DNA of 64,000 nt from Escherichia coli. Its GTDB lineage: Bacteria; Pseudomonadota; Gammaproteobacteria; Enterobacterales; Enterobacteriaceae. Position numbers and translations under genes: made by a program. The stretch lies in assembly GCA_902500125.1 (NCBI GenBank), contig GCA_902500125.1_4132.1, one strand, 5' to 3'. Under the pieces are notes generated by a model. It ran no database searches and was not told where the DNA came from. It saw only the letters and a list, made by a program, of their open reading frames with translations. Below are positions 4,985 through 63,819 of this stretch, piece by piece; position 1 is the first letter of the stretch; each line of letters starts with the position of its first letter.

Positions 4985-5557
4985 ATGAATCGTAAAGGTC
5001 GTTTTAAAGTATCAAAAAAGAACAAAAGTTCTAGGTTTAAACCTATTGTTTTAACAGTTAAATCTAACAAAGATTTAACTGCACTTAGTAAAAAGATAAT
5101 TTCATCTAAGATTGAAGTATCATACGTAAATTCATTAAAATATATGAATGTCAAACCACTGGACCAACTCATTTCACTTATATTTGAACGTAATGATTTT
5201 GAGATATCAGTAGATGATTATAGAGCCTATAATGCTGGTTTCATTAATGTTACTTGTAATAAAAAACTAACTGAGTTGGAAAATTTGTCATGTATAATAA
5301 ATCTAGATAAAGGTGTTGTGAAGTACCATTTTGTACATTTCACTAATATCAATAATGGAATGGGTGTACAATCCAGACCTATAGTGCCTACGTGTGATGT
5401 TACTAAATTAGCAAAGCTCAATGATGAAGAATATTTTCAAGAAAGCATTGTAACTGAGCATTTAGATGATATAATAGCTACTTACAAAGAATGCATATGG
5501 GTGTTGAATGCTATAAAACCTAAATTGTGTTTAATGAATATTGTTCGTGATTTATGA
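4985..5557 (+). CDS. family C paralog (EEYFQESI motif)
   Basis: Internal ATG of track ORF 4961..5557 with GAGGA RBS; NDEEYFQESIV matches 59-63.7 kb family. Confidence 0.55.
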   Translation: MNRKGRFKVSKKNKSSRFKPIVLTVKSNKDLTALSKKIISSKIEVSYVNSLKYMNVKPLDQLISLIFERNDFEISVDDYRAYNAGFINVTCNKKLTELENLSCIINLDKGVVKYHFVHFTNINNGMGVQSRPIVPTCDVTKLAKLNDEEYFQESIVTEHLDDIIATYKECIWVLNAIKPKLCLMNIVRDL

Positions 5558-17423: not shown

Positions 17424-18086
17424 ATGATGAAATCAAAATTAGGTTTGTTTTATAAAAACTATTTTGTTAAACAACGTAAATTTATAAAAAAATATTTCTC
17501 TGGCGAGAAGTCTAGTCCTATAATCTTTAAAAGACCAAGTTATAATACTTACTTAGCTGGTGCTAAACAGTCTAAGAAATTTATTACTCTTTTACATAAA
17601 AACAAAATTAAAGCTTCTTATGTTGAAACGAGAAGAAACTCATCAATAACTCCTGGTGATTTTATTGAGTACGGATGTTTCAATATTAAGTACAATGATA
17701 ATACATACTTTATGGATATTGATTGTAATACATCCAATCTTTTTAACATTGTAGTAAATCCATTAAAACAATATAATGTTTATGGTGATTCTATTATCAA
17801 ATTAATCAAAAACAAAGATAGCTTTGATTTTGAAATAAATGTTTTAGATGATAATTTTGACGAAGTACCAGTAAACCCTGAAATCTGTGATATTTTAAAC
17901 AGTTTAAAAGGTAGTACCTACACTATATCATCTGATTTAATGTTTCAGTACTCATTAATCCATAAAGATATTGAAAAGTATATTGAATGCTCCAAAATTT
18001 TGAATTATCTTTACGATGAATTTAAAAAGAGTTCTAAAATAACCGCATACACTTTGTACAATATTCCTAAAATGGTGAATCTTTGA
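17424..18086 (+). CDS. hypothetical protein (220 aa)
   Basis: Track ORF; GGAG RBS. Confidence 0.55.
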   Translation: MMKSKLGLFYKNYFVKQRKFIKKYFSGEKSSPIIFKRPSYNTYLAGAKQSKKFITLLHKNKIKASYVETRRNSSITPGDFIEYGCFNIKYNDNTYFMDIDCNTSNLFNIVVNPLKQYNVYGDSIIKLIKNKDSFDFEINVLDDNFDEVPVNPEICDILNSLKGSTYTISSDLMFQYSLIHKDIEKYIECSKILNYLYDEFKKSSKITAYTLYNIPKMVNL

Positions 18087-34225: not shown

Positions 34226-34588
34226 ATGGCGACTCAAATCACTAAAATTATTGCTAACCTGGTTAACTTTCGCGACGAGATGAAAGATCTTCCGGCAGAA
34301 ACGGTAAAAATTCACATTTCAGCTTATCGGGAACTTATTGCAATGTTACCGCTTAAGCGTGAACAATACGCCGCGACCGTGATGCTTGATGCGATGATCC
34401 ATAAGATGATCGCCAGTGATTTAACGATGGTTTATCAGTATATGGGCGAAAATTTCGCGGTGTATAGTAAACCAGTACCAGGAATGGAAAGTACAGAAGT
34501 ATTACACGGTTTAAATTTAAAACAAGATGCATGGGATAATATGCCTCGTTTCCTGGTATGGGCTGACAGTGGCAAGATTTACGAATAA
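34226..34588 (+). CDS. hypothetical protein (120 aa)
   Basis: Internal ATG of track ORF 34169..34588; track start lies in -10 box. Confidence 0.55.
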   Translation: MATQITKIIANLVNFRDEMKDLPAETVKIHISAYRELIAMLPLKREQYAATVMLDAMIHKMIASDLTMVYQYMGENFAVYSKPVPGMESTEVLHGLNLKQDAWDNMPRFLVWADSGKIYE

Positions 34589-34602
34589 GTTTTAGAAAGT
34601 AC

Positions 34603-34660
34603 TTGCAAACTAAGTTTAAAAGCGTATAATGTTTTACATCAGGTGGGGAATAGTTCCCCA
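34603..34660 (+). promoter_or_regulatory. promoter plus leader hairpin unit
   Basis: TTGCAA-N16-TATAAT then GGGGAA-TAGT-TCCCC. Confidence 0.55.
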
Positions 34661-34681
34661 CTATATAAGAGGATTAAAAAA

Positions 34682-34921
34682 ATGGCTAAATCAAAAATGT
34701 TCTTAGGTCACAAAAACAAAACTCATTGGAATGTAAGCCTTTGGATTAATAACGATGAGTCATTGTACCGGTTGGCCCAGGACTTTATTAACGATAGCAC
34801 TAATCGCAATGATGCGGCCCGTCATATGATGTTATTTTTAGAACAGACTGGACAAGATAAAACACCGGACGGATTCAAATATAGCACTACTGCGATCCGT
34901 GCGGCTATGGTTGGAATGTAA
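34682..34921 (+). CDS. hypothetical protein, paralog of 36724..36963
   Basis: Internal ATG of track ORF; GHKNKTHWNVSLWINN..TPDGFKYSTTAIRAAMVGM shared. Confidence 0.55.
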   Translation: MAKSKMFLGHKNKTHWNVSLWINNDESLYRLAQDFINDSTNRNDAARHMMLFLEQTGQDKTPDGFKYSTTAIRAAMVGM

Positions 34922-35009
34922 TAGAATAGAATTTATTTAAAGTACTATTGCACGGGGATAGTACTTTATAATAGTGTTTTATTCATACACCAACGATAAG
35001 GGCAACAGC

Positions 35010-53187: not shown

Positions 53188-53385
53188 ATGCGTATTTTAA
53201 CTCAAGCAGAACATCACGAAAGACTTATCAATAACATGGCATATATCCTACATATGTCACATATCCGTGGTATTGCATATAAGCGTGAATTGGTTATGGC
53301 ACTATTCATTGGAACTAACTTTCAGGAAAGGTATGTCAAGGATTGGATTTCATATTTAATTGAAGATATAACGGGTAAACTATGA
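53188..53385 (+). CDS. family B small tandem paralog
   Basis: Track ORF; IGTNFQERY motif. Confidence 0.55.
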   Translation: MRILTQAEHHERLINNMAYILHMSHIRGIAYKRELVMALFIGTNFQERYVKDWISYLIEDITGKL

Positions 53386-53590
53386 AAATTATCACACAAT
53401 TTCAACTATATAATCTTATGATCGAATATAGAAAGAATATATATATATACCAGATGAGTTATCTAGGGATGAAAAAAAGTTTATTCTATCGGAGTGGTGG
53501 ATGATGGCTGGACTGGGAACCAACTTCCAAGAAAGTTTTGTTAATGATTGGATTTTACATTTAATAAAAGATATAAAGAGTAAACAATGA
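53382..53590 (+). pseudogene. family B member interrupted by frameshift at (AT)n tract
   Basis: N-terminus stops at 53502; LGTNFQESF..DIKSKQ continues in another frame; AT dinucleotide run about 53436-53449. Confidence 0.5.
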
Positions 53591-53796
53591 AAACTATAAC
53601 ACGAACCCAATCATTAGGTCTTATCTTGAAATACATGGACTTAATGTTGGATATCAGCAAAGACCTTCCTAAAACTGAAATCCAAGTTGCAAGAGCAGAG
53701 ATCCGCATGTTGGCTGTACTGAACACAAACCATCAGGAAGATTATGTTGAAGAATGGATTCGATTTTTAATAGAAGATATAAAGAGTAAATTATGA
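53587..53796 (+). CDS. family B small tandem paralog
   Basis: Track ORF; ATGA overlap; LNTNHQEDY. Confidence 0.55.
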   Translation: MKTITRTQSLGLILKYMDLMLDISKDLPKTEIQVARAEIRMLAVLNTNHQEDYVEEWIRFLIEDIKSKL

Positions 53797-54008
53797 TTAT
53801 TATAGAAAACTCATATCAATATACTGAACGCATCGCTGCCAGACAACTTGAAATCCTCATAATATACGAAGAGACTTCTGATTTAAACTTAGCCGAGGTA
53901 TTGGAAAATGATATACTATTGGGTGCATTCTTAGGAACAGACTATCAGAAGTATTATGAGGAAAAGTATTTGTCATCTCTTGAGAAATATATCAGGAGCA
54001 AATTATGA
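53793..54008 (+). CDS. family B small tandem paralog
   Basis: Track ORF; LGTDYQKYY. Confidence 0.55.
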   Translation: MIIIENSYQYTERIAARQLEILIIYEETSDLNLAEVLENDILLGAFLGTDYQKYYEEKYLSSLEKYIRSKL

Positions 54009-54217
54009 TTTTTTTAACACCAGAAGAATATAAGAAACGTTTCAATTCCGCACAGGGTGAAATCTTACTTATATACCTTTCAAATGCAGACCTTAACTTA
54101 TCAAGGGTATTAGAAAAAGATTTACTTATGGGTGCATTCCTTGATACAGACTTTCAGGTGTATTATGTAGGGGAATACTTAATTGCACTTCAGAATTATA
54201 TCAGGAGTAAACTATGA
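54005..54217 (+). CDS. family B small tandem paralog
   Basis: Track ORF; LDTDFQVYY. Confidence 0.55.
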   Translation: MIFLTPEEYKKRFNSAQGEILLIYLSNADLNLSRVLEKDLLMGAFLDTDFQVYYVGEYLIALQNYIRSKL

Positions 54218-54441
54218 AACATTTAAGTAATTCCGAGAAGAATAAAATTATCATTGCTGCAATAAACAAATATTTTACACTTCCTCACAAAGAAGGTTTA
54301 TGTATAAGAGAACACAGGATAAACACCACCGATATACGCATGATGGCTGTACTGGGGACGAACTTCCAGGAAGAGTATGTTATTGCACACATAGTTGCAC
54401 TCAAGAATTACATTATGGACAAATGTAATGAACATCATTAA
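54214..54441 (+). CDS. family B small tandem paralog
   Basis: Track ORF; LGTNFQEEY. Confidence 0.55.
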   Translation: MKHLSNSEKNKIIIAAINKYFTLPHKEGLCIREHRINTTDIRMMAVLGTNFQEEYVIAHIVALKNYIMDKCNEHH

Positions 54442-54652
54442 TAACTTTGAATACGAGGCCCGTGCTAAGAGTGCCAGAAAAAAAGAGAACACCATTTACT
54501 TCACTATGATGTACTTACAATGGACTGAAATTGAAGAAAAGGTTGCTGAAGTATGGATGTTGGAATTCATGGGGACGCAGTATCAGAATAGGTTTGCGGG
54601 TGAGTATATCAATGTTCTTATGAAACAAATAGAAAGAAAGGAAAAGAACTAA
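54428..54652 (+). CDS. family B small tandem paralog
   Basis: First ATG in track ORF 54395..54652 (track start is TTG); MGTQYQNRF. Confidence 0.5.
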   Translation: MNIINNFEYEARAKSARKKENTIYFTMMYLQWTEIEEKVAEVWMLEFMGTQYQNRFAGEYINVLMKQIERKEKN

Positions 54653-54810
54653 TGGTTTTCATTAACATATCTGACCAACTCGATACTAAACTAGAAGTCG
54701 AGCAGAGTGAGGGATGGATGTTGTACTTTCTTGGAACTTCTCATCAGAATTTTTATATCCATGAACACATAGTTGCACTCACAAATCTAATAAGGGATAA
54801 ATGTAAATGA
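54652..54810 (+). CDS. family B small tandem paralog (short, 52 aa)
   Basis: TAATG-coupled; LGTSHQNFY; below track cutoff. Confidence 0.45.
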   Translation: MVFINISDQLDTKLEVEQSEGWMLYFLGTSHQNFYIHEHIVALTNLIRDKCK

Positions 54811-55064
54811 AACACTTGACGAACGATGAATATTCACTTAGAATTCGAAAGCTCACCCCAGAAGCAAGAGTAATCTACGATGACGATGCACTTTCATGGA
54901 ACGAGATGAAAGTTAAAGTTCATGAGCTATGGTTGCTGTACTTTGTGGGAACCCAATATCAAGAGAAATATTGTACCGATTATCTTGAACAACTAATGGA
55001 TCTTATACAGATAAAACTAAATGAACGAATTGTGGAAAAATATGAAAACTTTATCAAGCACTGA
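54807..55064 (+). CDS. family B small tandem paralog
   Basis: Track ORF; VGTQYQEKY. Confidence 0.55.
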   Translation: MKHLTNDEYSLRIRKLTPEARVIYDDDALSWNEMKVKVHELWLLYFVGTQYQEKYCTDYLEQLMDLIQIKLNERIVEKYENFIKH

Positions 55065-55293
55065 GTATCAAACTGCCCTCTTCTCCCTTCTAAACACCCT
55101 CCGCACGAACAATAAACTTTATAATTCCCGTGAAGCTGATATCGTCAACGCTGATGTATATCTTAATAAATTCATAGGGACTAACTATCAAGAACTGTTC
55201 ACTCTACGATATATCGCTGCATTGAGAAACGAAATATCAGATAAAACCCGTCAAGCCAGAAGAGAATGGAATAAACAATGCGACAAAGACTAA
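55042..55293 (+). CDS. family B small tandem paralog
   Basis: Internal ATG of track ORF 55021..55293; IGTNYQELF. Confidence 0.5.
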   Translation: MKTLSSTEYQTALFSLLNTLRTNNKLYNSREADIVNADVYLNKFIGTNYQELFTLRYIAALRNEISDKTRQARREWNKQCDKD

Positions 55294-55514
55294 ATCACAA
55301 AATGTATTGTAAACTATTGCAGACACTGGCACAGAAACACTATGACACTGTATCTGAAATATTACCCTATGATATCATGCGTTTAATTCATAGTGAGGCA
55401 GAGATGCTTGTACTGATGACAGGCACTGATAAAAAAGCAATTGCCAAATCAATAGATATGTTCATCGAAGCACAATGTCAACACATTAGAACCGAGATAT
55501 GGAGACGAGAATGA
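55278..55514 (+). CDS. family B small tandem paralog (divergent motif)
   Basis: Track ORF; MTGTDKKAI. Confidence 0.5.
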   Translation: MRQRLNHKMYCKLLQTLAQKHYDTVSEILPYDIMRLIHSEAEMLVLMTGTDKKAIAKSIDMFIEAQCQHIRTEIWRRE

Positions 55515-55726
55515 TAACACTAAATGAGTTTCAGTATCATTGGAGGTTACAAACTATCAAATCAAAAGTGTATAGTATTGTGTTAAACAAATCTATTGCA
55601 CAAGAGGACAAATGTGTTATAATAGCTGAAATGAAGTTGGGTGCTTTCGTAGGGACAAACTATCAAAACATCTACACTGACGTATTGTTAAGTGCCTTAC
55701 GTAACAAGGTGGTATCCAAAATATGA
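55511..55726 (+). CDS. family B small tandem paralog
   Basis: ATGA-coupled ATG in track ORF; VGTNYQNIY. Confidence 0.55.
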   Translation: MITLNEFQYHWRLQTIKSKVYSIVLNKSIAQEDKCVIIAEMKLGAFVGTNYQNIYTDVLLSALRNKVVSKI

Positions 55727-55941
55727 GAAATTTACAAGGCTTTGAATACATCAGACTCCTGAAAACATGCACCAGCAGAAGGAAAATCTTATCAAGCGAT
55801 AAGAGCATCCAAGCTAACCTTAAGCACGCACTAGTAACTGAACTCTATGTAGGTGCACTCTTAGGCACAAACTATCAACAAATGTATGTGGATCTATGGA
55901 TTGACGCTCTACAGAAAGAGGTTAAAAGTAAATGCAAATGA
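55723..55941 (+). CDS. family B small tandem paralog
   Basis: Track ORF; LGTNYQQMY. Confidence 0.55.
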   Translation: MRNLQGFEYIRLLKTCTSRRKILSSDKSIQANLKHALVTELYVGALLGTNYQQMYVDLWIDALQKEVKSKCK

Positions 55942-56150
55942 TTAATTTAAGTAAAGATGAATATTATGAACGTCTTGCAAAAACTTATCCAGCACGTAAG
56001 GCCGTTTATGATAGTCACATTATTGAACGCTCAAAGAAGTTGATTGTAGTAAATGAGATTAAGATGCTTTCAGTCTTAGGAACAAACTATCAAGAGAATG
56101 CTGTACTGTTGTTAATTGATGCCCTCCAGAGAGAGATACAAAGTAAATGA
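55938..56150 (+). CDS. family B small tandem paralog
   Basis: ATGA-coupled ATG in track ORF; LGTNYQENA. Confidence 0.55.
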   Translation: MINLSKDEYYERLAKTYPARKAVYDSHIIERSKKLIVVNEIKMLSVLGTNYQENAVLLLIDALQREIQSK

Positions 56151-56395
56151 TTCATTTATCTTACCATGATTATCAAAAACGTTTAAATGCATCAAGGGAT
56201 ATAAGGATTCAAATCTTCAATAACAAAAAATTGAAACCTGACACCAGAAGAATCAAAATGATAGAAGCAGAGTTATGCAACTTCCTGGGGACGAACTATC
56301 AGGCAGGTAAGGTAAAAAACTATCTTAGAGAACTAATGATTTGTATCGAAAATAAATGTGAGGTTGATGAACATGCAAATGATCAATTTAAGTAA
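56147..56395 (+). CDS. family B small tandem paralog
   Basis: Track ORF; LGTNYQAGK. Confidence 0.55.
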   Translation: MIHLSYHDYQKRLNASRDIRIQIFNNKKLKPDTRRIKMIEAELCNFLGTNYQAGKVKNYLRELMICIENKCEVDEHANDQFK

Positions 56396-56636
56396 AGATG
56401 AATATACCGAGCGTATGACAAAAATTACGCACAAACGTAATACAATCTATCACAACCCAGAAATTCAACACAGTAAGAAAATGATTATGATGCGTGAGTT
56501 AAAGATGGGTGTATTCTTGGGAACAAACTATCAAGAGCCAGAAGTAAATCGATTAATTGCTGAGTTACTATTGGAAATCAAAGGTAAGCTGTACTTTCAT
56601 CAAATGACCCAGCCACTGAGGTGTACTGATCGATGA
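56379..56636 (+). CDS. family B small tandem paralog
   Basis: Internal ATG (MINLSKDEY) of track ORF; LGTNYQEPE. Confidence 0.5.
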   Translation: MINLSKDEYTERMTKITHKRNTIYHNPEIQHSKKMIMMRELKMGVFLGTNYQEPEVNRLIAELLLEIKGKLYFHQMTQPLRCTDR

Positions 56637-56884
56637 ATGCGATGAATATTGTGAATAACATCAGATTAGCAGAAAGATTTGATAGAATTGGGGAAGCACT
56701 GAGAAGATACGATAAAGAATATGGTCATTTGAGCTTTTCTATAGAAAAGAGATATGAACTTGAAGCAGAGTTTAAAATGCAGAGTCTCTTAGGCACACAG
56801 TATCAAAACCAATATATTCAAACTTGGATTGATTGTTTAATCCAGACAATTTACGTAAGAAACATTAAATGCAAAATGAAATGA
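56633..56884 (+). CDS. family B small tandem paralog
   Basis: Track ORF; LGTQYQNQY. Confidence 0.55.
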   Translation: MNAMNIVNNIRLAERFDRIGEALRRYDKEYGHLSFSIEKRYELEAEFKMQSLLGTQYQNQYIQTWIDCLIQTIYVRNIKCKMK

Positions 56885-57129
56885 TATACTTAACCTATAA
56901 TGAATACGTCGAGAGATTAGTTCGTGCCAAGAGATATACCAATAAACGTCCAATTGACCTAAACCAAACCCCAGCAGAAAGGAGTGCAGAAGTATTATTC
57001 CAATCACTACCATATCTTCTGGGAACTGATAGACAAGAGGAATATGTTGCACGTATGATTAGATATCTTAAAATCACTATTAAGGAAAAAGTAAATGCAA
57101 ATGCAAATGAAATACTTAACAGACGATGA
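56881..57129 (+). CDS. family B small tandem paralog
   Basis: ATGA-coupled ATG in track ORF; LGTDRQEEY. Confidence 0.55.
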   Translation: MIYLTYNEYVERLVRAKRYTNKRPIDLNQTPAERSAEVLFQSLPYLLGTDRQEEYVARMIRYLKITIKEKVNANANEILNRR

Positions 57130-57352
57130 GTTAAAAGAACGACTAATTAAATCCAGAAAACTTACAAATCAACTTCCAAACGACACAAACAAGTCACATG
57201 CCGAAAGGAGTGCAGAAGTTTTATACATTCAACTCATGTACTTTCTTGGTACTGACAGACAAGAGTATTACATTGAAAGTATGCTTCGATATCTTAAATT
57301 CTCTATAAAGGAAAAGATACATGCTCAAGAATTTAAAAATCCTAACAGTTAA
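57107..57352 (+). CDS. family B small tandem paralog
   Basis: Internal ATG (MKYLTDDE) of track ORF; LGTDRQEYY. Confidence 0.5.
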   Translation: MKYLTDDELKERLIKSRKLTNQLPNDTNKSHAERSAEVLYIQLMYFLGTDRQEYYIESMLRYLKFSIKEKIHAQEFKNPNS

Positions 57353-57563
57353 TGAATATCATAAGATTGTAATGAAAACTAATAGTGAAATTTCTAAAAA
57401 ATCAAACCCAAAGTACATACTGGAACACACATTCGAAGAACGTCAATTAGCTCTAGTTGAAGCAAAACTTCTTGCACTCCTAGGGACTAACTATCAAGAA
57501 GAATACATCAGAAAACTAATATACCTTTTAACTAAACATATAAGAAAAAGAAAAAATGCATGA
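57321..57563 (+). CDS. family B small tandem paralog
   Basis: Track ORF; LGTNYQEEY. Confidence 0.55.
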   Translation: MLKNLKILTVNEYHKIVMKTNSEISKKSNPKYILEHTFEERQLALVEAKLLALLGTNYQEEYIRKLIYLLTKHIRKRKNA

Positions 57564-57790
57564 AACACTTGACAGATGATGAACATGGGCTTATAGTAAT
57601 GGATGTAATCAACATCGAATACAAAAAGTTGATACGCTACCGTTGTTATGAAGATAAGCAACTCGTTCTAGCAGAACAGAAGTTGTTTCGACTCTTAAAC
57701 ACAAACTTCCAAGCACAATACGAAGAATCGTATATGTACCTTTTGGCGAGGAAAGCAAAAAGAGATTATGAAAATTTTAAGCAAAGGTGA
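57560..57790 (+). CDS. family B small tandem paralog
   Basis: Track ORF; LNTNFQAQY. Confidence 0.55.
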   Translation: MKHLTDDEHGLIVMDVINIEYKKLIRYRCYEDKQLVLAEQKLFRLLNTNFQAQYEESYMYLLARKAKRDYENFKQR

Positions 57791-57983
57791 TTCAGTAATA
57801 TTACTTATAGAGAGTTCAAGTAAATTCTTAAACATAACACTGTCTGATATAGATGAAGATGACAAAGAAGTACTGAGAGCAGATTTAAGAGTACTGTTAC
57901 ATATCGGAACAAACCTACAAGAAGAATATGTAGAGTGCTACATCAATGAACTTAAAGAATTAGTACTGAGAAAATGCAAATGA
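57768..57983 (+). CDS. family B small tandem paralog
   Basis: Track ORF; IGTNLQEEY. Confidence 0.55.
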   Translation: MKILSKGDSVILLIESSSKFLNITLSDIDEDDKEVLRADLRVLLHIGTNLQEEYVECYINELKELVLRKCK

Positions 57984-58201
57984 AAATCATTACCGATGCA
58001 GAATACCTAACAATCATAAATGGACTGTTTTTGAAGCTCTTCGTCATTAACACATCAGATATACCAGATATGGATAAAATTATTAAGAGAAATGAAGTCT
58101 ATGTTCTAGCTACCCTTGGAACGAACTATCAAGAACACGACATTAAAGATTATATTAATACACTTAAACGAGCGATTGAACTAAAATGCCAAAACCACTA
58201 G
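57980..58201 (+). CDS. family B small tandem paralog
   Basis: ATGA-coupled ATG in track ORF; LGTNYQEHD. Confidence 0.55.
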   Translation: MKIITDAEYLTIINGLFLKLFVINTSDIPDMDKIIKRNEVYVLATLGTNYQEHDIKDYINTLKRAIELKCQNH

Positions 58202-58401
58202 GAACAGCAGAATACATTGAACTAATGGGATTACACTTCTCATCCTTTCAGAAACTTATGCGAGAATCAAAGAATGATTTAGAATATACCATCAGAGGTT
58301 CCGATTTAAGAATGCTTCTCACCCTAGACACAGATTCCCAAGAGCGATTTGTCAATGAGCATATTAGAGCACTTTTAATGGAAATTCAAAGTAAACTATG
58401 A
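58186..58401 (+). CDS. family B small tandem paralog
   Basis: Track ORF; LDTDSQERF. Confidence 0.55.
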   Translation: MPKPLGTAEYIELMGLHFSSFQKLMRESKNDLEYTIRGSDLRMLLTLDTDSQERFVNEHIRALLMEIQSKL

Positions 58402-58613
58402 AGGTAATATCAAATCAAGAGTACTTGGCACTATTCAGGAAGAATAATCACAAATATATGGCACTTGATTCAAGAACTGATATAAGTGAACTTGAAAAAA
58501 ATCTTTTGCGTTCAGATATGATAGTACTGACACTCTTAGGAACACAGCATCAAGAGAGAACTGTTAATTCACACATAGGGATTCTAATGCAGATAGTACA
58601 GGAAAAGATATGA
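58398..58613 (+). CDS. family B small tandem paralog
   Basis: Track ORF; LGTQHQERT. Confidence 0.55.
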   Translation: MKVISNQEYLALFRKNNHKYMALDSRTDISELEKNLLRSDMIVLTLLGTQHQERTVNSHIGILMQIVQEKI

Positions 58614-58831
58614 GAATCATAACACAACAAGATATTCTTAAGTTCACAAGGGTTCATGCATCTGAATTTGATGCTATATTATCAAAAAGTTACAACAACC
58701 CTTATACAGAAGATGTACACTACAATGAATTATGGGTGTATATACTTTTAGGTACAGATCATCAAGAGCAAGCAGTACAGAAGTATTTGTTAGCTTTACG
58801 TGATGCTACTGCTAATGGAGTACGTGTTTAA
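58610..58831 (+). CDS. family B small tandem paralog
   Basis: Track ORF; LGTDHQEQA. Confidence 0.55.
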   Translation: MRIITQQDILKFTRVHASEFDAILSKSYNNPYTEDVHYNELWVYILLGTDHQEQAVQKYLLALRDATANGVRV

Positions 58832-58832
58832 T

Positions 58833-59075
58833 ATGAAAGTACTGACAGAACTAGAAATGTATCATAGATTTAATAAGTACTATCATTTACTTAAGCCTAT
58901 ACAGAGGATTAAATGTCCATTTGAAGAGAAACAGGTATTAATTTATGAGCATAAGTTATTTGTATCATTAGGTACAGATCAACAAGAGTACTATTTGACG
59001 TTGTACTTGATTACATTAATAGATTTAATTTACTATAAAACCAAACAAGCTAATAAAGAGAAATATGAAAACTAA
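58833..59075 (+). CDS. family B small tandem paralog
   Basis: ATG just after upstream stop in track ORF 58800..59075; LGTDQQEYY. Confidence 0.55.
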   Translation: MKVLTELEMYHRFNKYYHLLKPIQRIKCPFEEKQVLIYEHKLFVSLGTDQQEYYLTLYLITLIDLIYYKTKQANKEKYEN

Positions 59076-59409
59076 TATACAACTCAAGGTATATAAATCA
59101 TTTGAACATACATATATCAAAAGTAGTCTATGTAGAGATGTAATGGATTACAAGGGTAAGCCATTCACAATTACTTATGATTCTTATGTTGATGATTTAT
59201 ATATATCATTTGTTAATTACGAAAATAAAATATACAAGCACGTTGATATTAAAGATTTAAGTACTTTATCACCAGAGGAATACTTCCAGGAATCATTAGT
59301 ATGGGATTTAGAGTTCCCTATGCCATTAGTACATAAGATGATAGTACTAATGAAAGAATCTAAACAGGAGCCTAATAGTGCTTATGAAGAACACATTATT
59401 GAGTATTAA
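59065..59409 (+). CDS. family C paralog (EEYFQESL motif)
   Basis: Track ORF; PEEYFQESLVWDLEF. Confidence 0.55.
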   Translation: MKTNIQLKVYKSFEHTYIKSSLCRDVMDYKGKPFTITYDSYVDDLYISFVNYENKIYKHVDIKDLSTLSPEEYFQESLVWDLEFPMPLVHKMIVLMKESKQEPNSAYEEHIIEY

Positions 59410-59779
59410 GAGTACTGATAATATTAAGAGTTATACAAGCTCAAGTACTGTGACAATCGAAGTGAATTCTATTAATGCTGGTAATGCAGTAGATAAGTTC
59501 TTTATTGCTCAAGGGTACAGGAAAGATATTCATCAATATTGTTCAGTATATGGGGAGTACAATAGTACTGAAGATATAATTTATTGGTCAACACATCAAG
59601 ATTATCTAACTAAAATTGGAGTCCCAGATGTTAGTACTTTATCTGAAGAAGAATACTTTCAGTACAGCTTAATATGTGATGTACCTATACCTTTAGGGTT
59701 AATCAAGGGTATACAGGAAGAGGTTCATAAGCTTAAATCCATGAGTAAAGGTACTTTCATTAGAACAGTGCAATACTAG
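59384..59779 (+). CDS. family C paralog
   Basis: Track ORF 59378..59779; SEEEYFQYSLICDV. Confidence 0.55.
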   Translation: MKNTLLSIKSTDNIKSYTSSSTVTIEVNSINAGNAVDKFFIAQGYRKDIHQYCSVYGEYNSTEDIIYWSTHQDYLTKIGVPDVSTLSEEEYFQYSLICDVPIPLGLIKGIQEEVHKLKSMSKGTFIRTVQY

Positions 59780-59780
59780 C

Positions 59781-59809
59781 TTGACAGTACTTTTCATTAC
59801 TGATATAGT
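59781..59809 (+). promoter_or_regulatory. sigma70-like promoter
   Basis: TTGACA-N17-TATAGT. Confidence 0.4.
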
Positions 59810-59838
59810 ACACTAACGTTAATCATAGGGTAAAAATT

Positions 59839-60084
59839 ATGTTAAATTTTTTAAATTTCCTTATCGTTTTGTGTATTGTTCTTGGGATTGCACCATTTGT
59901 ATTGTATTTCATGGATTCAGATGAAATGCAGAAGATGAATTGTACAAGGACAGGACAGAGTAGAGAAGAGACGATTCTTATGCCTGTTACGGTTATTGTT
60001 AACAACATGCCCATTACAAACATGGTCCCTACCCTAACGACAACGTACCAGTACTCTTGTGCTGACGGAGAGAGGTGGAGATGA
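59839..60084 (+). CDS. small protein with N-terminal transmembrane segment
   Basis: Track ORF; MLNFLNFLIVLCIVLGIAPFVLYF. Confidence 0.5.
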   Translation: MLNFLNFLIVLCIVLGIAPFVLYFMDSDEMQKMNCTRTGQSREETILMPVTVIVNNMPITNMVPTLTTTYQYSCADGERWR

Positions 60085-60401
60085 AATTTAATATAGCAAA
60101 AACATCGAGTATATGTATTTTTGGTTATGCAGAAGAGTTAGGTGATATTGACATTCTTTTGTACAAAAAGGATGGTGTTATGCATTTCAAGTACCAGGAT
60201 GAAGAGGCAGACAATTATCTTTTACCTAATTTAGTACAAATGCAGGAAGAGGAATTATTCCAGTACAGCTTAGTATACGACATTGATATTTGCACGATGC
60301 CAGTACTAATTAGTATTCAAAAAGTGATGCTCGATATGTATGATAAGCTAATACAAGGTACATCAGGGAGAATCATTGAAATCGATATACAAGACAATTA
60401 A
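60081..60401 (+). CDS. family C paralog
   Basis: ATGA-coupled ATG in track ORF 60075..60401; EEELFQYSLVYDI. Confidence 0.55.
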   Translation: MKFNIAKTSSICIFGYAEELGDIDILLYKKDGVMHFKYQDEEADNYLLPNLVQMQEEELFQYSLVYDIDICTMPVLISIQKVMLDMYDKLIQGTSGRIIEIDIQDN

Positions 60402-60594
60402 TCAAGAATGGAAGACCCAAAAGTACAGGGAATTCAACAGGAATTTTACAAAAGATGCATTGAATTTAAAAACAACAGAGTTTGATATGTTTATTTTTCT
60501 TGGAACACGTTCACAAGAACAATTTGTTCATTATTATATAAATTCGTTGCGAACGGAGATAGTATGCAAAACACAGGGTATTATAAAAAGGTAA
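60376..60594 (+). CDS. family B-like small protein
   Basis: Track ORF; FLGTRSQEQFVHYYINSL. Confidence 0.5.
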   Translation: MKSIYKTINQEWKTQKYREFNRNFTKDALNLKTTEFDMFIFLGTRSQEQFVHYYINSLRTEIVCKTQGIIKR

Positions 60595-60830
60595 ACCAAT
60601 ATTTGTACGCTACAAAGTACAGGGATTTTTGTTTAAAGGGTGGTGATGAAGATTTTTCTTTGCGATTATCAGAATTTAATCTGTTATTTTATCTTGGTAC
60701 AAAAGAACAAGAAGAAATGGCACAGAAATTTATCAAGCACCTTTTACAAAAAATTAATATGCAAATTTTGATGCTTAAGTTACAGAATGAGATAAATGAA
60801 TATGAATCCAGAAATAGTACAGGATCTTAA
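60564..60830 (+). CDS. family B-like small protein
   Basis: Track ORF; YLGTKEQEEMAQKFI. Confidence 0.5.
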   Translation: MQNTGYYKKVNQYLYATKYRDFCLKGGDEDFSLRLSEFNLLFYLGTKEQEEMAQKFIKHLLQKINMQILMLKLQNEINEYESRNSTGS

Positions 60831-61188
60831 ACAAGTAATATTCCTTTTGAATACCAGAAGTGAATTGTATACAGAGTTAAAAGAGATTAATGCATTTTAT
60901 CAGAATTTTGTAATCCAAGAGTTCAGTGATTTAATTACAGATGCATTATTTGAATTCTCGGAGAAATACAAAGGAACAGAGTTCAGTGTTAAGAATGTTA
61001 TTCGTCCAAGTACAAGGAAAATTATATTATCACATTTTACATTTGACAATAAAGATTTATTCAGTCATAATCCAAGTACAGCTTTATATTTTATTCCTGA
61101 TTCAGACAAAAATCATCCTATTCATTACGGATGGATTTTGTCATATATAGTACAAGGAAAGGAGTATCCTATTAAATGGAAAGATTAG
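60802..61188 (+). CDS. hypothetical protein
   Basis: Track ORF 60796..61188. Confidence 0.5.
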   Translation: MNPEIVQDLKQVIFLLNTRSELYTELKEINAFYQNFVIQEFSDLITDALFEFSEKYKGTEFSVKNVIRPSTRKIILSHFTFDNKDLFSHNPSTALYFIPDSDKNHPIHYGWILSYIVQGKEYPIKWKD

Positions 61189-61337
61189 GGCGATTAGATT
61201 ATTACACAATTAATACAAATTATTTGTTGAGTAATATAAAATCCGATTACAAAATATGGATAAAGAACAGAGATAGCATGTGTTATGAATTTTATTTAGA
61301 TTATGCTATCAAACGATTTTTAAGAGAAGAACATTAA
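61176..61337 (+). CDS. small protein (53 aa)
   Basis: ATG overlapping upstream gene end, TAATG-coupled to next gene; below track cutoff. Confidence 0.35.
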   Translation: MERLGRLDYYTINTNYLLSNIKSDYKIWIKNRDSMCYEFYLDYAIKRFLREEH

Positions 61338-61540
61338 TGCAAAAGATTAATACGATAACATTAAATGCATTACAGGATTCATTATTAGATAGTATTAAGA
61401 TGTATTACAATATACATTTGAAGGGTGGTATTGATAATTACGATTATTATTTGAGTTTAATTACATTTGAGCACCTTTCAGTACAGGACAGGATTATACA
61501 TCCTACAAATCCTAGGTATCCATCGATAGGTAAATTATGA
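61337..61540 (+). CDS. hypothetical protein (67 aa)
   Basis: Track ORF. Confidence 0.5.
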   Translation: MQKINTITLNALQDSLLDSIKMYYNIHLKGGIDNYDYYLSLITFEHLSVQDRIIHPTNPRYPSIGKL

Positions 61541-62085
61541 ATGAGATAGATTTATTAGCACACAAGATAAGTACAATAATGCTTATCCTCAATAACAACC
61601 ATCCTATATCGCAGATAGATGGAATCCTGAGTCAGAGGACAGGTGGTAGTTTATATTTGTCCATAAACGCAGATATCGCAAGGAAATACATTGATATTGA
61701 TGTTGAAATCGAATATGATACAACGGGGATTGTTGATGTAGGAGCATTAATCAGTTCAAATCCAGTATCAGCATCCCCATTGACCAAAGATGTTAGTACA
61801 GGATTCGAAGGATATTTGTGGTACAATACCAATGATGATTATTTTATATATCAGCATTCCAATACAAATTATGATGAAGACAAATTTCAGTTCATAGACC
61901 CTTATGATGAAGCTGAAGTATTTCAAAAATCATTAATCACAAAACCGCATGAGATGATGTATCTAATGTTATTCAGTACAATGCATTTGAATCCATTAAT
62001 TAAAGGTTTAAAATTTTATATTCAATTAAATTTAGTCCATGTAGTTTATGATTTATTAATGCAAGGATATAGTTATGAAGTATAA
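61537..62085 (+). CDS. family C paralog
   Basis: Track ORF; DEAEVFQKSLIT. Confidence 0.55.
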   Translation: MNEIDLLAHKISTIMLILNNNHPISQIDGILSQRTGGSLYLSINADIARKYIDIDVEIEYDTTGIVDVGALISSNPVSASPLTKDVSTGFEGYLWYNTNDDYFIYQHSNTNYDEDKFQFIDPYDEAEVFQKSLITKPHEMMYLMLFSTMHLNPLIKGLKFYIQLNLVHVVYDLLMQGYSYEV

Positions 62086-62386
62086 AATGATGTATACCCC
62101 AGATATGATTTATGTTGAATTAGAAGATGATGACGATGGGTGGAATTTGATTTATTCAAGAAGTTCAGGTTGGTACATGGCACATTTAAATGATTCGATA
62201 GTTACAGATTATTTTGTAGATTTCAATACATTATCCGATGAAGAATTGTTCCAACAGCAATTAGTGATTGACACGGGTGGTTATGATGTCTTATTATTAA
62301 AAAAGATACAAAAAGCTGTTATTGATTTTAAGCCCATGATATGGCAAAGGAAATATTATGACCTCGAAGTACCATACCAGCAATGA
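62075..62386 (+). CDS. family C paralog
   Basis: Track ORF; SDEELFQQQLVID. Confidence 0.55.
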   Translation: MKYKMMYTPDMIYVELEDDDDGWNLIYSRSSGWYMAHLNDSIVTDYFVDFNTLSDEELFQQQLVIDTGGYDVLLLKKIQKAVIDFKPMIWQRKYYDLEVPYQQ

Positions 62387-62924
62387 AATTCAGTACACCT
62401 ACGCTAATGCAATCCTTATGGGACAAAAGTTAGCTTGTATTGTTGCAGCCTTATATAATGCCCAGAAATATCACAAGCGTCATTTCCACAAATGTATTGG
62501 TATTATTCCATCGAAGTACAATACATATATTGCGTGCACGAGTCATTTTGATAAACGATTCAATACACCTGATACCCCAAATGCCAGTAGTGTTATTGGT
62601 CTTTTGGATTTCGCACCTGGTGCTGTTATTGGAAAGAATGATTTAGAGTACACATGGTATAATAAAAATGCCCCGTTAGTAATGGGAAAATATGATACAG
62701 AAACGAATAAAACAATAGAGTACAATACATATAAATCAGAGGAAGAATTTTTCCAAGGTTCATTGCTTGTACCAGTGCGTTTGTTGTTTTATAATGTCCT
62801 TATTAGTACAGTACACAATAGTCCATTACACAAGAATCACAAAATTAATTTCAATTTTTGTGCTTATGCGATTGATGGTGTGTATGAGTGTTTAATGGAG
62901 GTATTGAGTTATGAAGCTGAATAA
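62358..62924 (+). CDS. family C paralog
   Basis: Track ORF; SEEEFFQGSLLVP. Confidence 0.55.
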   Translation: MTSKYHTSNEIQYTYANAILMGQKLACIVAALYNAQKYHKRHFHKCIGIIPSKYNTYIACTSHFDKRFNTPDTPNASSVIGLLDFAPGAVIGKNDLEYTWYNKNAPLVMGKYDTETNKTIEYNTYKSEEEFFQGSLLVPVRLLFYNVLISTVHNSPLHKNHKINFNFCAYAIDGVYECLMEVLSYEAE

Positions 62925-63252
62925 TACATTTGATATTAATAAGTTAAGAGAATGGTTTTATAGTATTGAAATTGAAGCCATCCCGTATCATAGATATGAA
63001 CAATATAATTTAACCAGTATTGATATCCGTGAGTTGTACGCGTATTATCAAAGTGCATTAGAGATGCATAAGTTATTTTTGAGTACAGATTTTGTTATAA
63101 ATTACAATTTTGAGGAATTTAATAATTATAATTTAGTACAGAAATATGTAGTAGCAAAGTACATGTACCTTCAAGGAATTACAAGTAATTTGGAATTCAA
63201 TACAGTCCTGGCTTTAGTTGAGGTAATTTTATGCAGTACATGTATGATTTAG
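62911..63252 (+). CDS. hypothetical protein (113 aa)
   Basis: Track ORF. Confidence 0.5.
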   Translation: MKLNNTFDINKLREWFYSIEIEAIPYHRYEQYNLTSIDIRELYAYYQSALEMHKLFLSTDFVINYNFEEFNNYNLVQKYVVAKYMYLQGITSNLEFNTVLALVEVILCSTCMI

Positions 63253-63737
63253 AGTTTAGTTTAGATGCTGCCTTTAAATTTGTTCACAAGATAGAAACAA
63301 TATACAGTACATTATGTGCAATACAATCAGTATCATCTGAGTTTGATGTTGGTGAAAAATATCAGGTATGGAATAATACATTTCTAAACAAAGAACGTTG
63401 CTCTACGGGGTTTAATATTTTAACATTTAATCCCAGCAATTGTTACCCAGAGAAGCATGAACGTTATCCGAATGACGACATGTGGTTTGATTACACAAAA
63501 GATGGTGATATGTCATCCCTTGTAGTTCCTGATGATTTTAATGCCGAAGATTTAACGAAAGAGTGGTGGTTTCAACAGAATTTAGTACACGATGATATTG
63601 ATTTATTTTTTTATGTAGTATTTAAAATGCTTTACCACAACAATATATTAAAAGATAGTGTGTTTTTTTCATGTCTATATATTGATGATTTGTACAATGA
63701 AATCCAAATCAACATGCCCAGAACGCCTGTATCGTAA
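63231..63737 (+). CDS. family C-like paralog
   Basis: Track ORF; TKEWWFQQNLVHDD. Confidence 0.5.
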   Translation: MQYMYDLEFSLDAAFKFVHKIETIYSTLCAIQSVSSEFDVGEKYQVWNNTFLNKERCSTGFNILTFNPSNCYPEKHERYPNDDMWFDYTKDGDMSSLVVPDDFNAEDLTKEWWFQQNLVHDDIDLFFYVVFKMLYHNNILKDSVFFSCLYIDDLYNEIQINMPRTPVS

Positions 63738-63762
63738 GATATGGGCTTTTTTCGTTTTGGTA

Positions 63763-63791
63763 TTGACAAAGAAGTGCAAAGCTGTTATCAT
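63763..63791 (+). promoter_or_regulatory. sigma70-like promoter
   Basis: TTGACA-N17-TATCAT. Confidence 0.45.
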
Positions 63792-63819
63792 GTGTAATCA
63801 TTTTAAAGGAGAACATATA

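Follow-up and report, generated by a model that had tools for sequence, protein, structure and literature searches.

A diverged, tandemly grown EEYFQ multigene family in jumbo coliphages and its possible action on host proteins

What is encoded by a run of small genes that share a short acidic motif around the residues EEYFQ, and what would a phage gain from so many of them? The question is raised by a 64,000-nucleotide stretch deposited under Escherichia coli (assembly GCA_902500125.1, contig GCA_902500125.1_4132.1), which we analysed over its whole length and call the window. Judged by sequence comparison, the window is DNA of an Asteriusvirus jumbo coliphage. Its 4.7-kb EEYFQ array region, which is AT-rich (GC 31%), has 97.9% identity to Escherichia phage phAPEC6 and is matched in 34 phage records, of which 30 are from Escherichia and 4 are from Salmonella (including G17, PBECO4 and 121Q); the genomes of these phages span about 310–386 kb and their genus, where assigned, is Asteriusvirus. 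More than 80% of the genes in these 350-kb phages have no known function. We show that eight genes of the window are members of a single, diverged multigene superfamily whose proteins are small, probably cytoplasmic and for the most part acidic. Our best explanation of the whole, an early-expressed, tandem-grown multigene family acting on host proteins, has a probability of roughly 55% in our estimate.

Eight genes of the window carry one signature

A six-frame regular-expression scan found the motif in exactly eight open reading frames (ORFs) of the window, seven at 59065–63737 and one at 4985–5557, the very places named in a reading made from the DNA letters alone (the original prediction). 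These genes, designated F1–F8, comprise short forms (F1, F2, F3, F5), long forms (F4, F6, F7) and an outlying member (F8); the gp numbers refer to phAPEC6.

59065..59409, + strand: F1, short form, 114 aa, gp466c; motif LSPEEYFQESLVWD, coded from 59263
59378..59779, + strand: F2, short form, 133 aa, gp465c; motif LSEEEYFQYSLICD
60075..60401, + strand: F3, short form, 108 aa as listed, gp463c; motif QEEELFQYSLVYD
61537..62085, + strand: F4, long form, 182 aa, gp460c; motif DEAEVFQKSLITK
62075..62386, + strand: F5, short form, 103 aa, gp459c; motif LSDEELFQQQLVID
62358..62924, + strand: F6, long form, 188 aa, gp458c; motif SEEEFFQGSLLV
63231..63737, + strand: F7, long form, 168 aa, gp456c; degenerate motif TKEWWFQQNLVHD
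4985..5557, + strand: F8, outlying member, 190 aa from its ATG, gp039c; motif LNDEEYFQESIVTE

F2 starts with GTG at 59378 and has an alternative ATG at 59384, the most likely start of F3 is the ATG at 60081 (giving 106 aa), and the F8 ORF as listed opens at GTG 4961. The array proteins are 103–188 aa long, slightly below the 103–190 aa first given for them; 190 aa is the length of F8 counted from the ATG at 4985. The motif of F7 (KEWWFQQNLV) is the most degenerate of the eight. Chance was assessed with 300 within-ORF residue shuffles of all 271 ORFs of the window. The strict pattern EE[YFL]FQ.S[LI][VIL] was observed 5 times against 0.000 expected, and the relaxed pattern E.[YFLVW]FQ..[LI][VIL] 7 times against 0.017, showing that the motif exceeds composition-matched expectation, as the original prediction had supposed.

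The relationship extends beyond the motif. Pairwise phmmer searches linked F1 with F2 (2e-7), F2 with F3, F3 with F5, and F4 with F6 (1.4e-7), and gave no match for F7 or F8 among the eight. When a profile of the four short forms was run over the 271 ORFs, the next best matches were F8 (5e-5), F6 (9e-5), F4 (3e-4) and F7 (7e-3), with noise at 0.38, and the alignment extended upstream of the motif into the x-x-x-Y, turn and strand segment of the long forms. A profile built only from 57 external representatives, which are metagenome relatives, recovered F1, F2, F3 and F5 at 6.5e-13 or better (F1 1.1e-19), F8 at 2e-7, F6 at 1e-5 and F4 at 1e-3; F7 missed the 1e-3 cut. F7 aligns to F4 and F6 via the helix and an H-N-x-L-K segment after the motif. 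The best non-self matches of an F8-only profile were F1 (3.6e-6) and F2 (8.9e-4).

The close relative EC22.5-2 (351,992 bp, unannotated, 1283 ORFs) served as the comparison genome. A profile from this whole genome, which includes the F7 ortholog, found F7 at 3.9e-14. In the window it retrieved exactly these eight ORFs at E ≤8e-11, followed by ORF 17424–18086 at 0.011.

The motif is a predicted core helix of a shared domain

The signature helix, [ST]-E-E-x-[FYLVW]-F-Q-x-[SQN]-[LTI]-[VIL], lies 39–56 residues from the C-terminus in all eight ORFs. An alignment of the eight members with their orthologs has three invariant columns, namely F, Q and a Tyr about 32 residues upstream. Across the 123 members compared, which come from three phages, F is conserved in 98%, Q in 96%, S in 83% and each of the two E residues in 74%, with [LT] in 88% and [VIL] in 93%. 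Among 110 aligned members, Tyr stands at −31 in 88% and D, E or N at −11 in 97%, while the positions after Q and after [VIL] vary freely among the representatives. The codons of the motif differ between paralogs (Ser by TCA, TCT, TCC or AGC; Q by CAA or CAG; F by TTT or TTC), indicating that it is conserved at the protein level, not as a DNA repeat or through recent gene conversion.

In AlphaFold models of F3 (pLDDT 68, pTM 0.61) and F6 (pLDDT 74, pTM 0.78), the motif forms a helix, with a beta-sheet ahead of it and a longer helix and then a strand behind it. Confidence in the F3 model is highest in the 10-residue block just ahead of the motif helix, and in F6 the helix falls in one of the better blocks. 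Alignments and models together suggest a shared domain of about 75–100 residues, predicted to consist of an antiparallel beta-sheet with the near-invariant Tyr, the Asp, the capped motif helix, a second amphipathic helix and a final strand. The long forms add a predicted N-terminal and C-terminal helix, and F8 carries a different, basic N-terminal region. The hydrophobic, helix-like segment announced after the motif is predicted to be this amphipathic second helix, not a membrane segment. We consider the family and this structural description highly probable.

An S/T-x-E-E start is a typical helix cap, and the spacing of F, S, L and V fits, we infer, a helix buried on more than one face. The motif would mainly be structural core, with F, the S/L pair and [VIL] packing on the sheet and the second helix and the x positions facing solvent. 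A shared role in binding would also be compatible with the near-invariant Q and the acidic cap.

An adaptor family would be one form of such a binding role. The acidic helix would then be a docking site for one common host or phage machine, and the variable remainder of each protein would recruit a different target, as F-box and BTB families do in eukaryotes and their viruses. F and Q are kept at 96–98%, together with the acidic cap, across paralogs of about 20% identity and three phage lineages, a tighter constraint than a purely structural helix normally requires; elsewhere each protein has diverged almost completely, unrelated-looking N-terminal regions (F8, long forms) sit on the same C-terminal module, and a natural chimera is joined at the motif. 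However, the prediction puts the motif in a helix within the domain, inside or adjoining the highest-confidence segment of each model, with a hydrophobic stripe typical of a buried helix, and the conserved Tyr (−31) and Asp (−11) speak for a folded unit and against a linear motif. We regard an adaptor family as unlikely and read the motif mainly as structural core.

The family makes up about a tenth of the genes and reaches other phages

In EC22.5-2, an iterative profile search run to convergence over the 1283 ORFs recovered 65 EEYFQ members, all on one strand, whereas the best of 2566 reversed or shuffled decoys reached E 0.13. The main array holds 41 members at 57–86 kb, the first of which correspond to F1–F7; a second cluster holds 18 members at 303–324 kb, and a few copies are scattered, including F8 and one ending 53 bp before the window start. 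The paralogy reported for the window therefore stands and its extent had been underestimated, F1–F7 being only the first part of a 41-gene array. Likewise, the gene at 4985–5557 belongs to the family as claimed, but not as a lone copy, since F8 is an outlier of the second cluster. In phage G17, a dozen further ORFs match the profiles just past the right edge of the window. With 65 members against the 551 predicted genes of phAPEC6, the family accounts for roughly a tenth of the gene count in these coliphage genomes of about 350 kb.

An exhaustive HMMER search of 1.84 billion cluster representatives (50% identity) gave 70 at E ≤1e-3, from metagenome assemblies and E. coli jumbo phages such as A4 and JNE01. 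Nearly all are 100–130 aa long, with [IV]PDL[ST]xLSEEE[FLY]FQxSLVWD and a C-terminal [IV]-[EQ]-Y. One representative of 1486 aa (P0091) is a Calx-beta repeat protein and was rejected as a false positive. A further relative (P0025) comes from a 1057-bp contig labelled Actinomadura adrarensis and is an F1 ortholog truncated at the N-terminus, with the UniRef name 'DUF2283 domain-containing protein'; we take it, with near certainty, for coliphage contamination that received a misleading automatic name. DUF2283 (PF10049) itself was rejected, as the best-scoring F1 ortholog reaches 13.9 bits against a 23-bit cut-off (E 0.063) over 26 residues that exclude the motif; the weak match covers the beta-hairpin 'FTITYDSxxxDLYISF' of F1 orthologs.

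Outside the coliphages, a 40-kb stretch of Klebsiella phage RaK2 (genus Alcyoneusvirus) contains 29 members with the motif variant TEEGYFQxS[TL]. For about half of them the closest match is an E. coli-phage member and not a RaK2 paralog; RaK2 34391–34999, for example, scores 49 bits to an E. coli-phage member and 15 bits to its best RaK2 paralog. Part of the diversification thus predates the genus split and part is lineage-specific. A tblastn search with the short-form consensus reached nine Klebsiella phage records, and one with the whole-family consensus gave almost no matches. Only 19 close matches came from a protein search based on the 65-sequence alignment, since aligning globally had diluted the profile; a related-locus search with a 21-sequence alignment had the 121Q contig as its sole confirmed locus. 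Among predicted viral structures, Foldseek matched proteins of RaK2, GAP32, fHe-Yen9 and an Erwinia jumbo phage, all weakly.

A 24-kb metagenome contig of GC 35% (L011, from Logan SRR31913103) was also examined and has 32 EEYFQ members in the 16.7 kb of it that were retrieved. A run of genes for 110–130 aa is followed there by genes for 170–230 aa, the same short-then-long order as in the coliphage array.

The arrays grew by duplication, loss and recombination and are kept by selection

Close paralogs tend to be neighbours. In EC22.5-2, the best paralog of a member lies a median of 5 family ranks away, compared with 19 under permutation, and is directly adjacent in 9 cases against 1.5 expected. 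The gene content of the array differs between isolates: the matched region spans 4.0–5.9 kb in close isolates (4.67 kb in the window), EC22.5-2 has one more long-form gene, located between F4 and F5, and parts of the array are deleted in relatives adapted to Salmonella. Chimeras occur as well. One from an ENA metagenome (P0023) begins as the N-part of F2 and continues from the motif as the C-part of F1, and in Salmonella phage SD-1_S14 (P0066) a deletion has fused the N-part of ORF 62911 with the C-part of F7. ORF 62911–63252 was itself considered as a relative of the long-form N-domain and rejected, the hhalign match being an artefact of the P0066 chimera in the alignment (BLASTP to F7, E 2).

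These data show that the EEYFQ family expanded through tandem duplication, accompanied by loss and by recombination among its paralogs. Local duplication and shuffling had been proposed from the window alone as the mode of growth, and this is borne out by the nearness of close paralogs, the isolate differences, the chimeras and the interleaving of genes from a second array, family B. The two genes named as interleaved, at 60376 and 60564, indeed match the family-B profile (E 1.7e-10 and 1.4e-7).

Copies that arise and vanish in this way might be neutral filler, that is, redundant products of tandem duplication that pad the genome after the capsid enlarged and have little individual function. 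The copy-number variation between isolates and the array deletions in the Salmonella-adapted relatives would fit this idea. In contrast, the paralogs are only about 15–30% identical and yet their frames are open, specific paralogs are kept across genera (the RaK2 gene above, 49 against 15 bits), and the motif is conserved at the amino-acid level through synonymous change. Between the window and EC22.5-2, dN/dS is 0.25 for family members versus 0.18 for 85 other genes, indicating that the EEYFQ genes are maintained under purifying selection and are not decaying copies. Filler is accordingly an improbable account, and a maintained, tandem-grown family is favoured.

Short, long and outlying forms are joined by a narrow region

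In profile–profile comparison by hhalign, the ties between subfamilies are looser: short and long forms are similar with 76% probability over 24 columns and the external short forms and F8 with 84% probability, whereas long forms and F8 gave no similarity in this comparison. At the sequence level, F8 is tied to the family only via the short forms, and the link among short forms, long forms and F8 rests on about 25–35 residues, a shared architecture and intermediates, not on end-to-end similarity.

Such a narrow link could also mean that the three types are unrelated and that each acquired the same 10-residue peptide by convergence or transfer, for example as a clamp-binding-like motif of the type Qx[SD]L[VIL] or a 3C/TEV-like cleavage site of the type E-x-x-[YF]-F-Q. 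The profile–profile similarity confined to about 24 columns around the motif would be expected in that case, and the motif peptide does resemble the QL[SD]LF clamp-binding motifs and the ENLYFQ/S and LEVLFQ/G protease sites. Nevertheless, the subfamilies share the spacing of Tyr and Asp, the order of secondary structure and the 39–56 residues from motif to C-terminus. They co-occur in the same arrays in three phage lineages and are connected by intermediates in iterative searches with clean decoys. Furthermore, the residue after Q is free (E, Y, K, Q, G, L, M, R, W and others), unfit for P1' or for clamp position 2, and the motif is predicted to be helical, not extended. We consider a transferred or convergent peptide quite improbable and retain common descent of the three types.

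The two specific candidates were rejected on their own terms. For a beta-clamp-binding motif, the second position is not restricted to hydrophobic residues and the motif is predicted as an internal helix instead of a flexible terminus or loop; for a 3C/TEV-like protease site, the residue after Q is not restricted to small ones (G/S) and the site is predicted to be helical.

Context points to early, non-structural proteins

The orthologs of all eight genes (gp456c, gp458c, gp459c, gp460c, gp463c, gp465c, gp466c and gp039c) are absent from the 62-protein virion proteome of phAPEC6 determined by mass spectrometry. The published virion list, which concerns a 98%-identical phage and not this isolate, holds nothing between gp347 and gp549. 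The proteins are mostly acidic, with a median pI of 4.8 and 53 of the 65 members below 5.5. No signal peptide or membrane segment was obvious when the translations were read by eye, with no predictor run.

Near-consensus sigma-70 sites (at least 11 of 12 matches) number 32 on the + strand, which is the coding strand, and 6 on the − strand, against about 2 per strand in shuffles. Fourteen of the 32 are perfect TTGACA-16/17-TATAAT, and two of the + strand sites sit in gaps within or after the array. This density suggests, as far as sequence can tell, a large early region read by host polymerase. Sites on the + strand include 1509, 11857, 32763, 35962, 43024, 43338, 44451 and 46099, and further 46439, 46869, 49292, 49783 and 51309; they are densest at 43–52 kb. 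Where the genome ends of relatives have been mapped, the array starts some 6 kb into the 21-kb terminal repeat. The distantly related phage PA5oct, of the same broad clade as the EEYFQ coliphages, depends on the RNA polymerase of its host, and small unknown genes within its long terminal repeat make up its early set. The absence from the virion, the acidity, the sigma-70 sites, the position in the terminal repeat and the parallel in PA5oct together point to early, non-structural, cytoplasmic proteins.

That the products are instead packaged and ejected with the DNA, for instance as parts of the inner body of unknown composition in the phAPEC6 capsid, is very improbable: this body offers a possible location and other large phages have many internal head proteins that are likewise small and acidic, but the eight orthologs and the entire gp347–gp549 interval went undetected in the virion, and the genes are located among sigma-70-type promoters, at a distance from those for morphogenesis.

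We propose that the EEYFQ genes would be transcribed early by host RNA polymerase and that their products would stay out of the virion. The many diverged surfaces on one scaffold could bind different host proteins, in host takeover or in countering host defences. We rate this host-interaction role at a little under an even chance. A bolder version, which we hold to be speculative and rather unlikely, is a phage-encoded repertoire in which one scaffold or docking helix is present in about 65 copies, the variable surface of each being aimed at its own host protein or defence system so as to neutralise or redirect it.

Several observations weigh against the early host-directed family, in addition to the narrow links between its subfamilies. 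The host-interaction role is argued from context and analogy, and the promoters are consensus matches only. F6 (pI 7.1) and F8 (pI 9.1, basic) are not acidic. The quality of the two models (F3 and F6; pLDDT 68 and 74) is moderate, and dN/dS is not raised, giving no signature of an arms race or positive selection at this time scale. None of the eight proteins matches Pfam at E up to 1, including its immunity and anti-defence families, and subfamily profiles found nothing better than E 0.098 among Protein Data Bank (PDB) sequences. In PHROGs, the eight fall into clusters that are all of unknown function and cross-match weakly: phrog_13866 (F1 at 1.9e-7, F3 at 4e-40, and also F5), phrog_33987 (F5), phrog_19795 (F4 at 3e-94), phrog_34516 (F7) and phrog_33518 (F8, a single copy in 36 related phages). 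When the relatives were compared with Pfam, sub-threshold noise was the sole outcome, for example Imm27 at E 0.1.

Comparison with known multigene families and early regions

Large eukaryotic DNA viruses carry multigene families such as MGF360, MGF505 and MGF110 of African swine fever virus and the ankyrin/PRANC and Bcl-2-like families of poxviruses. The EEYFQ family is like these in having dozens of diverged tandem paralogs near a genome end, with isolate-variable copy number and products outside the virion, and by analogy a role in host range or in countering host defence may be expected. It differs in that there is no sequence or fold relationship and the host is bacterial.

A second likeness is to the early takeover blocks of phages. 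The small early ORFs of T4 and T5 and the early genes of PA5oct are likewise small, packed and unannotated, with host-type promoters near the genome end; those blocks are mostly unrelated singletons, whereas the EEYFQ family is one fold copied about 65 times.

Tandem paralog arrays in jumbo phages are already known, and those of the same clade likewise arose as lineage-specific expansions by tandem duplication. Phage G has about 35 zinc-ribbon copies (Iyer et al.), and an array of 'very similar genes' was published for 121Q without coordinates. Judged from copy number and similarity, the 121Q array is probably family B and not the EEYFQ family, which shows far greater divergence, is larger and occupies several clusters. 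PHROGs keeps the eight proteins in five separate unannotated clusters, which are here joined with about 57 further genes per genome under one signature. We found no description of the EEYFQ family, its signature or its extent in the libraries and literature searched.

The signature thus ties together about 65 genes per genome, along with the arrays in Klebsiella phage RaK2 and in uncultivated relatives. It turns a block of 'hypothetical proteins' into one tractable family, in which a single structure, interaction screen or array deletion would inform dozens of genes, and the arrays offer a concrete case of jumbo-phage genome growth by duplication. The family is also a candidate explanation of host-range differences among phages considered for therapy against E. 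coli and Klebsiella. If the repertoire idea were true, about a tenth of the coding capacity of RaK2-type phages would be a counter-defence or host-range arsenal built from an undescribed fold.

Neighbouring features of the window

The following features accompany the array or resemble its members.

60376..60594, + strand: family-B gene, 72 aa, LGTxxQE motif
60564..60830, + strand: family-B gene, 88 aa
59781..59809, + strand: near-consensus sigma-70 promoter-like site, TTGACA, 17-nt spacer, TATAGT, with TG
63725..63746, + strand: terminator-like hairpin and T-run at the end of F7; annotated terminator in phage G17
63763..63791, + strand: promoter-like site after the hairpin that ends F7
63790..64000, + strand: next array member, N-terminal ~70 aa, cut by the window end
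17424..18086, + strand: candidate ninth member, 220 aa, basic, phrog_34359; SSDLMFQYSLIHKD

The next array member possibly starts at GTG 63820, and its first ~70 residues match EC22.5-2 62390–62932; this ortholog carries the motif GEDEYFQYSTV, which in the phage of the window falls past the window end.

ORF 17424–18086 may, from its sequence, be a divergent EEYFQ member. It has SSDLMFQYSLIHKD 47 aa from its C-terminus, the usual distance for the family, and shares P..P..CD and Y.EC..LN near the motif with F8. The whole-genome profile gave it E 0.011 and BLASTP to F8 gave E 0.14; the F8-only profile did not recover it.

By their sequences, the genes at 60376 and 60564 belong to family B and lie outside the EEYFQ family. 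Counting these two, family B has 27 tightly packed ORFs of about 70 aa with an LGTxxQE motif in the window; the others lie at 53188–59075, directly upstream of the EEYFQ array, in which the two copies are interleaved.

The promoter-like site at 59781–59809 occupies the gap after F2, ahead of F3 and of ORF 59839–60084 (+ strand, 81 aa, phrog_8826), which lies directly behind it. The N-terminal half of this ORF is strongly hydrophobic, and from its sequence it may encode a small membrane protein.

On the minus strand, the interval 18562–27816 encodes at least six RCC1-like beta-propeller paralogs of 370–410 aa (Pfam PF25390, PF00415 and PF13540). This array probably corresponds to the virion-associated 'DNA condensation proteins' of phAPEC6 (gp003–010, gp549 and gp551).

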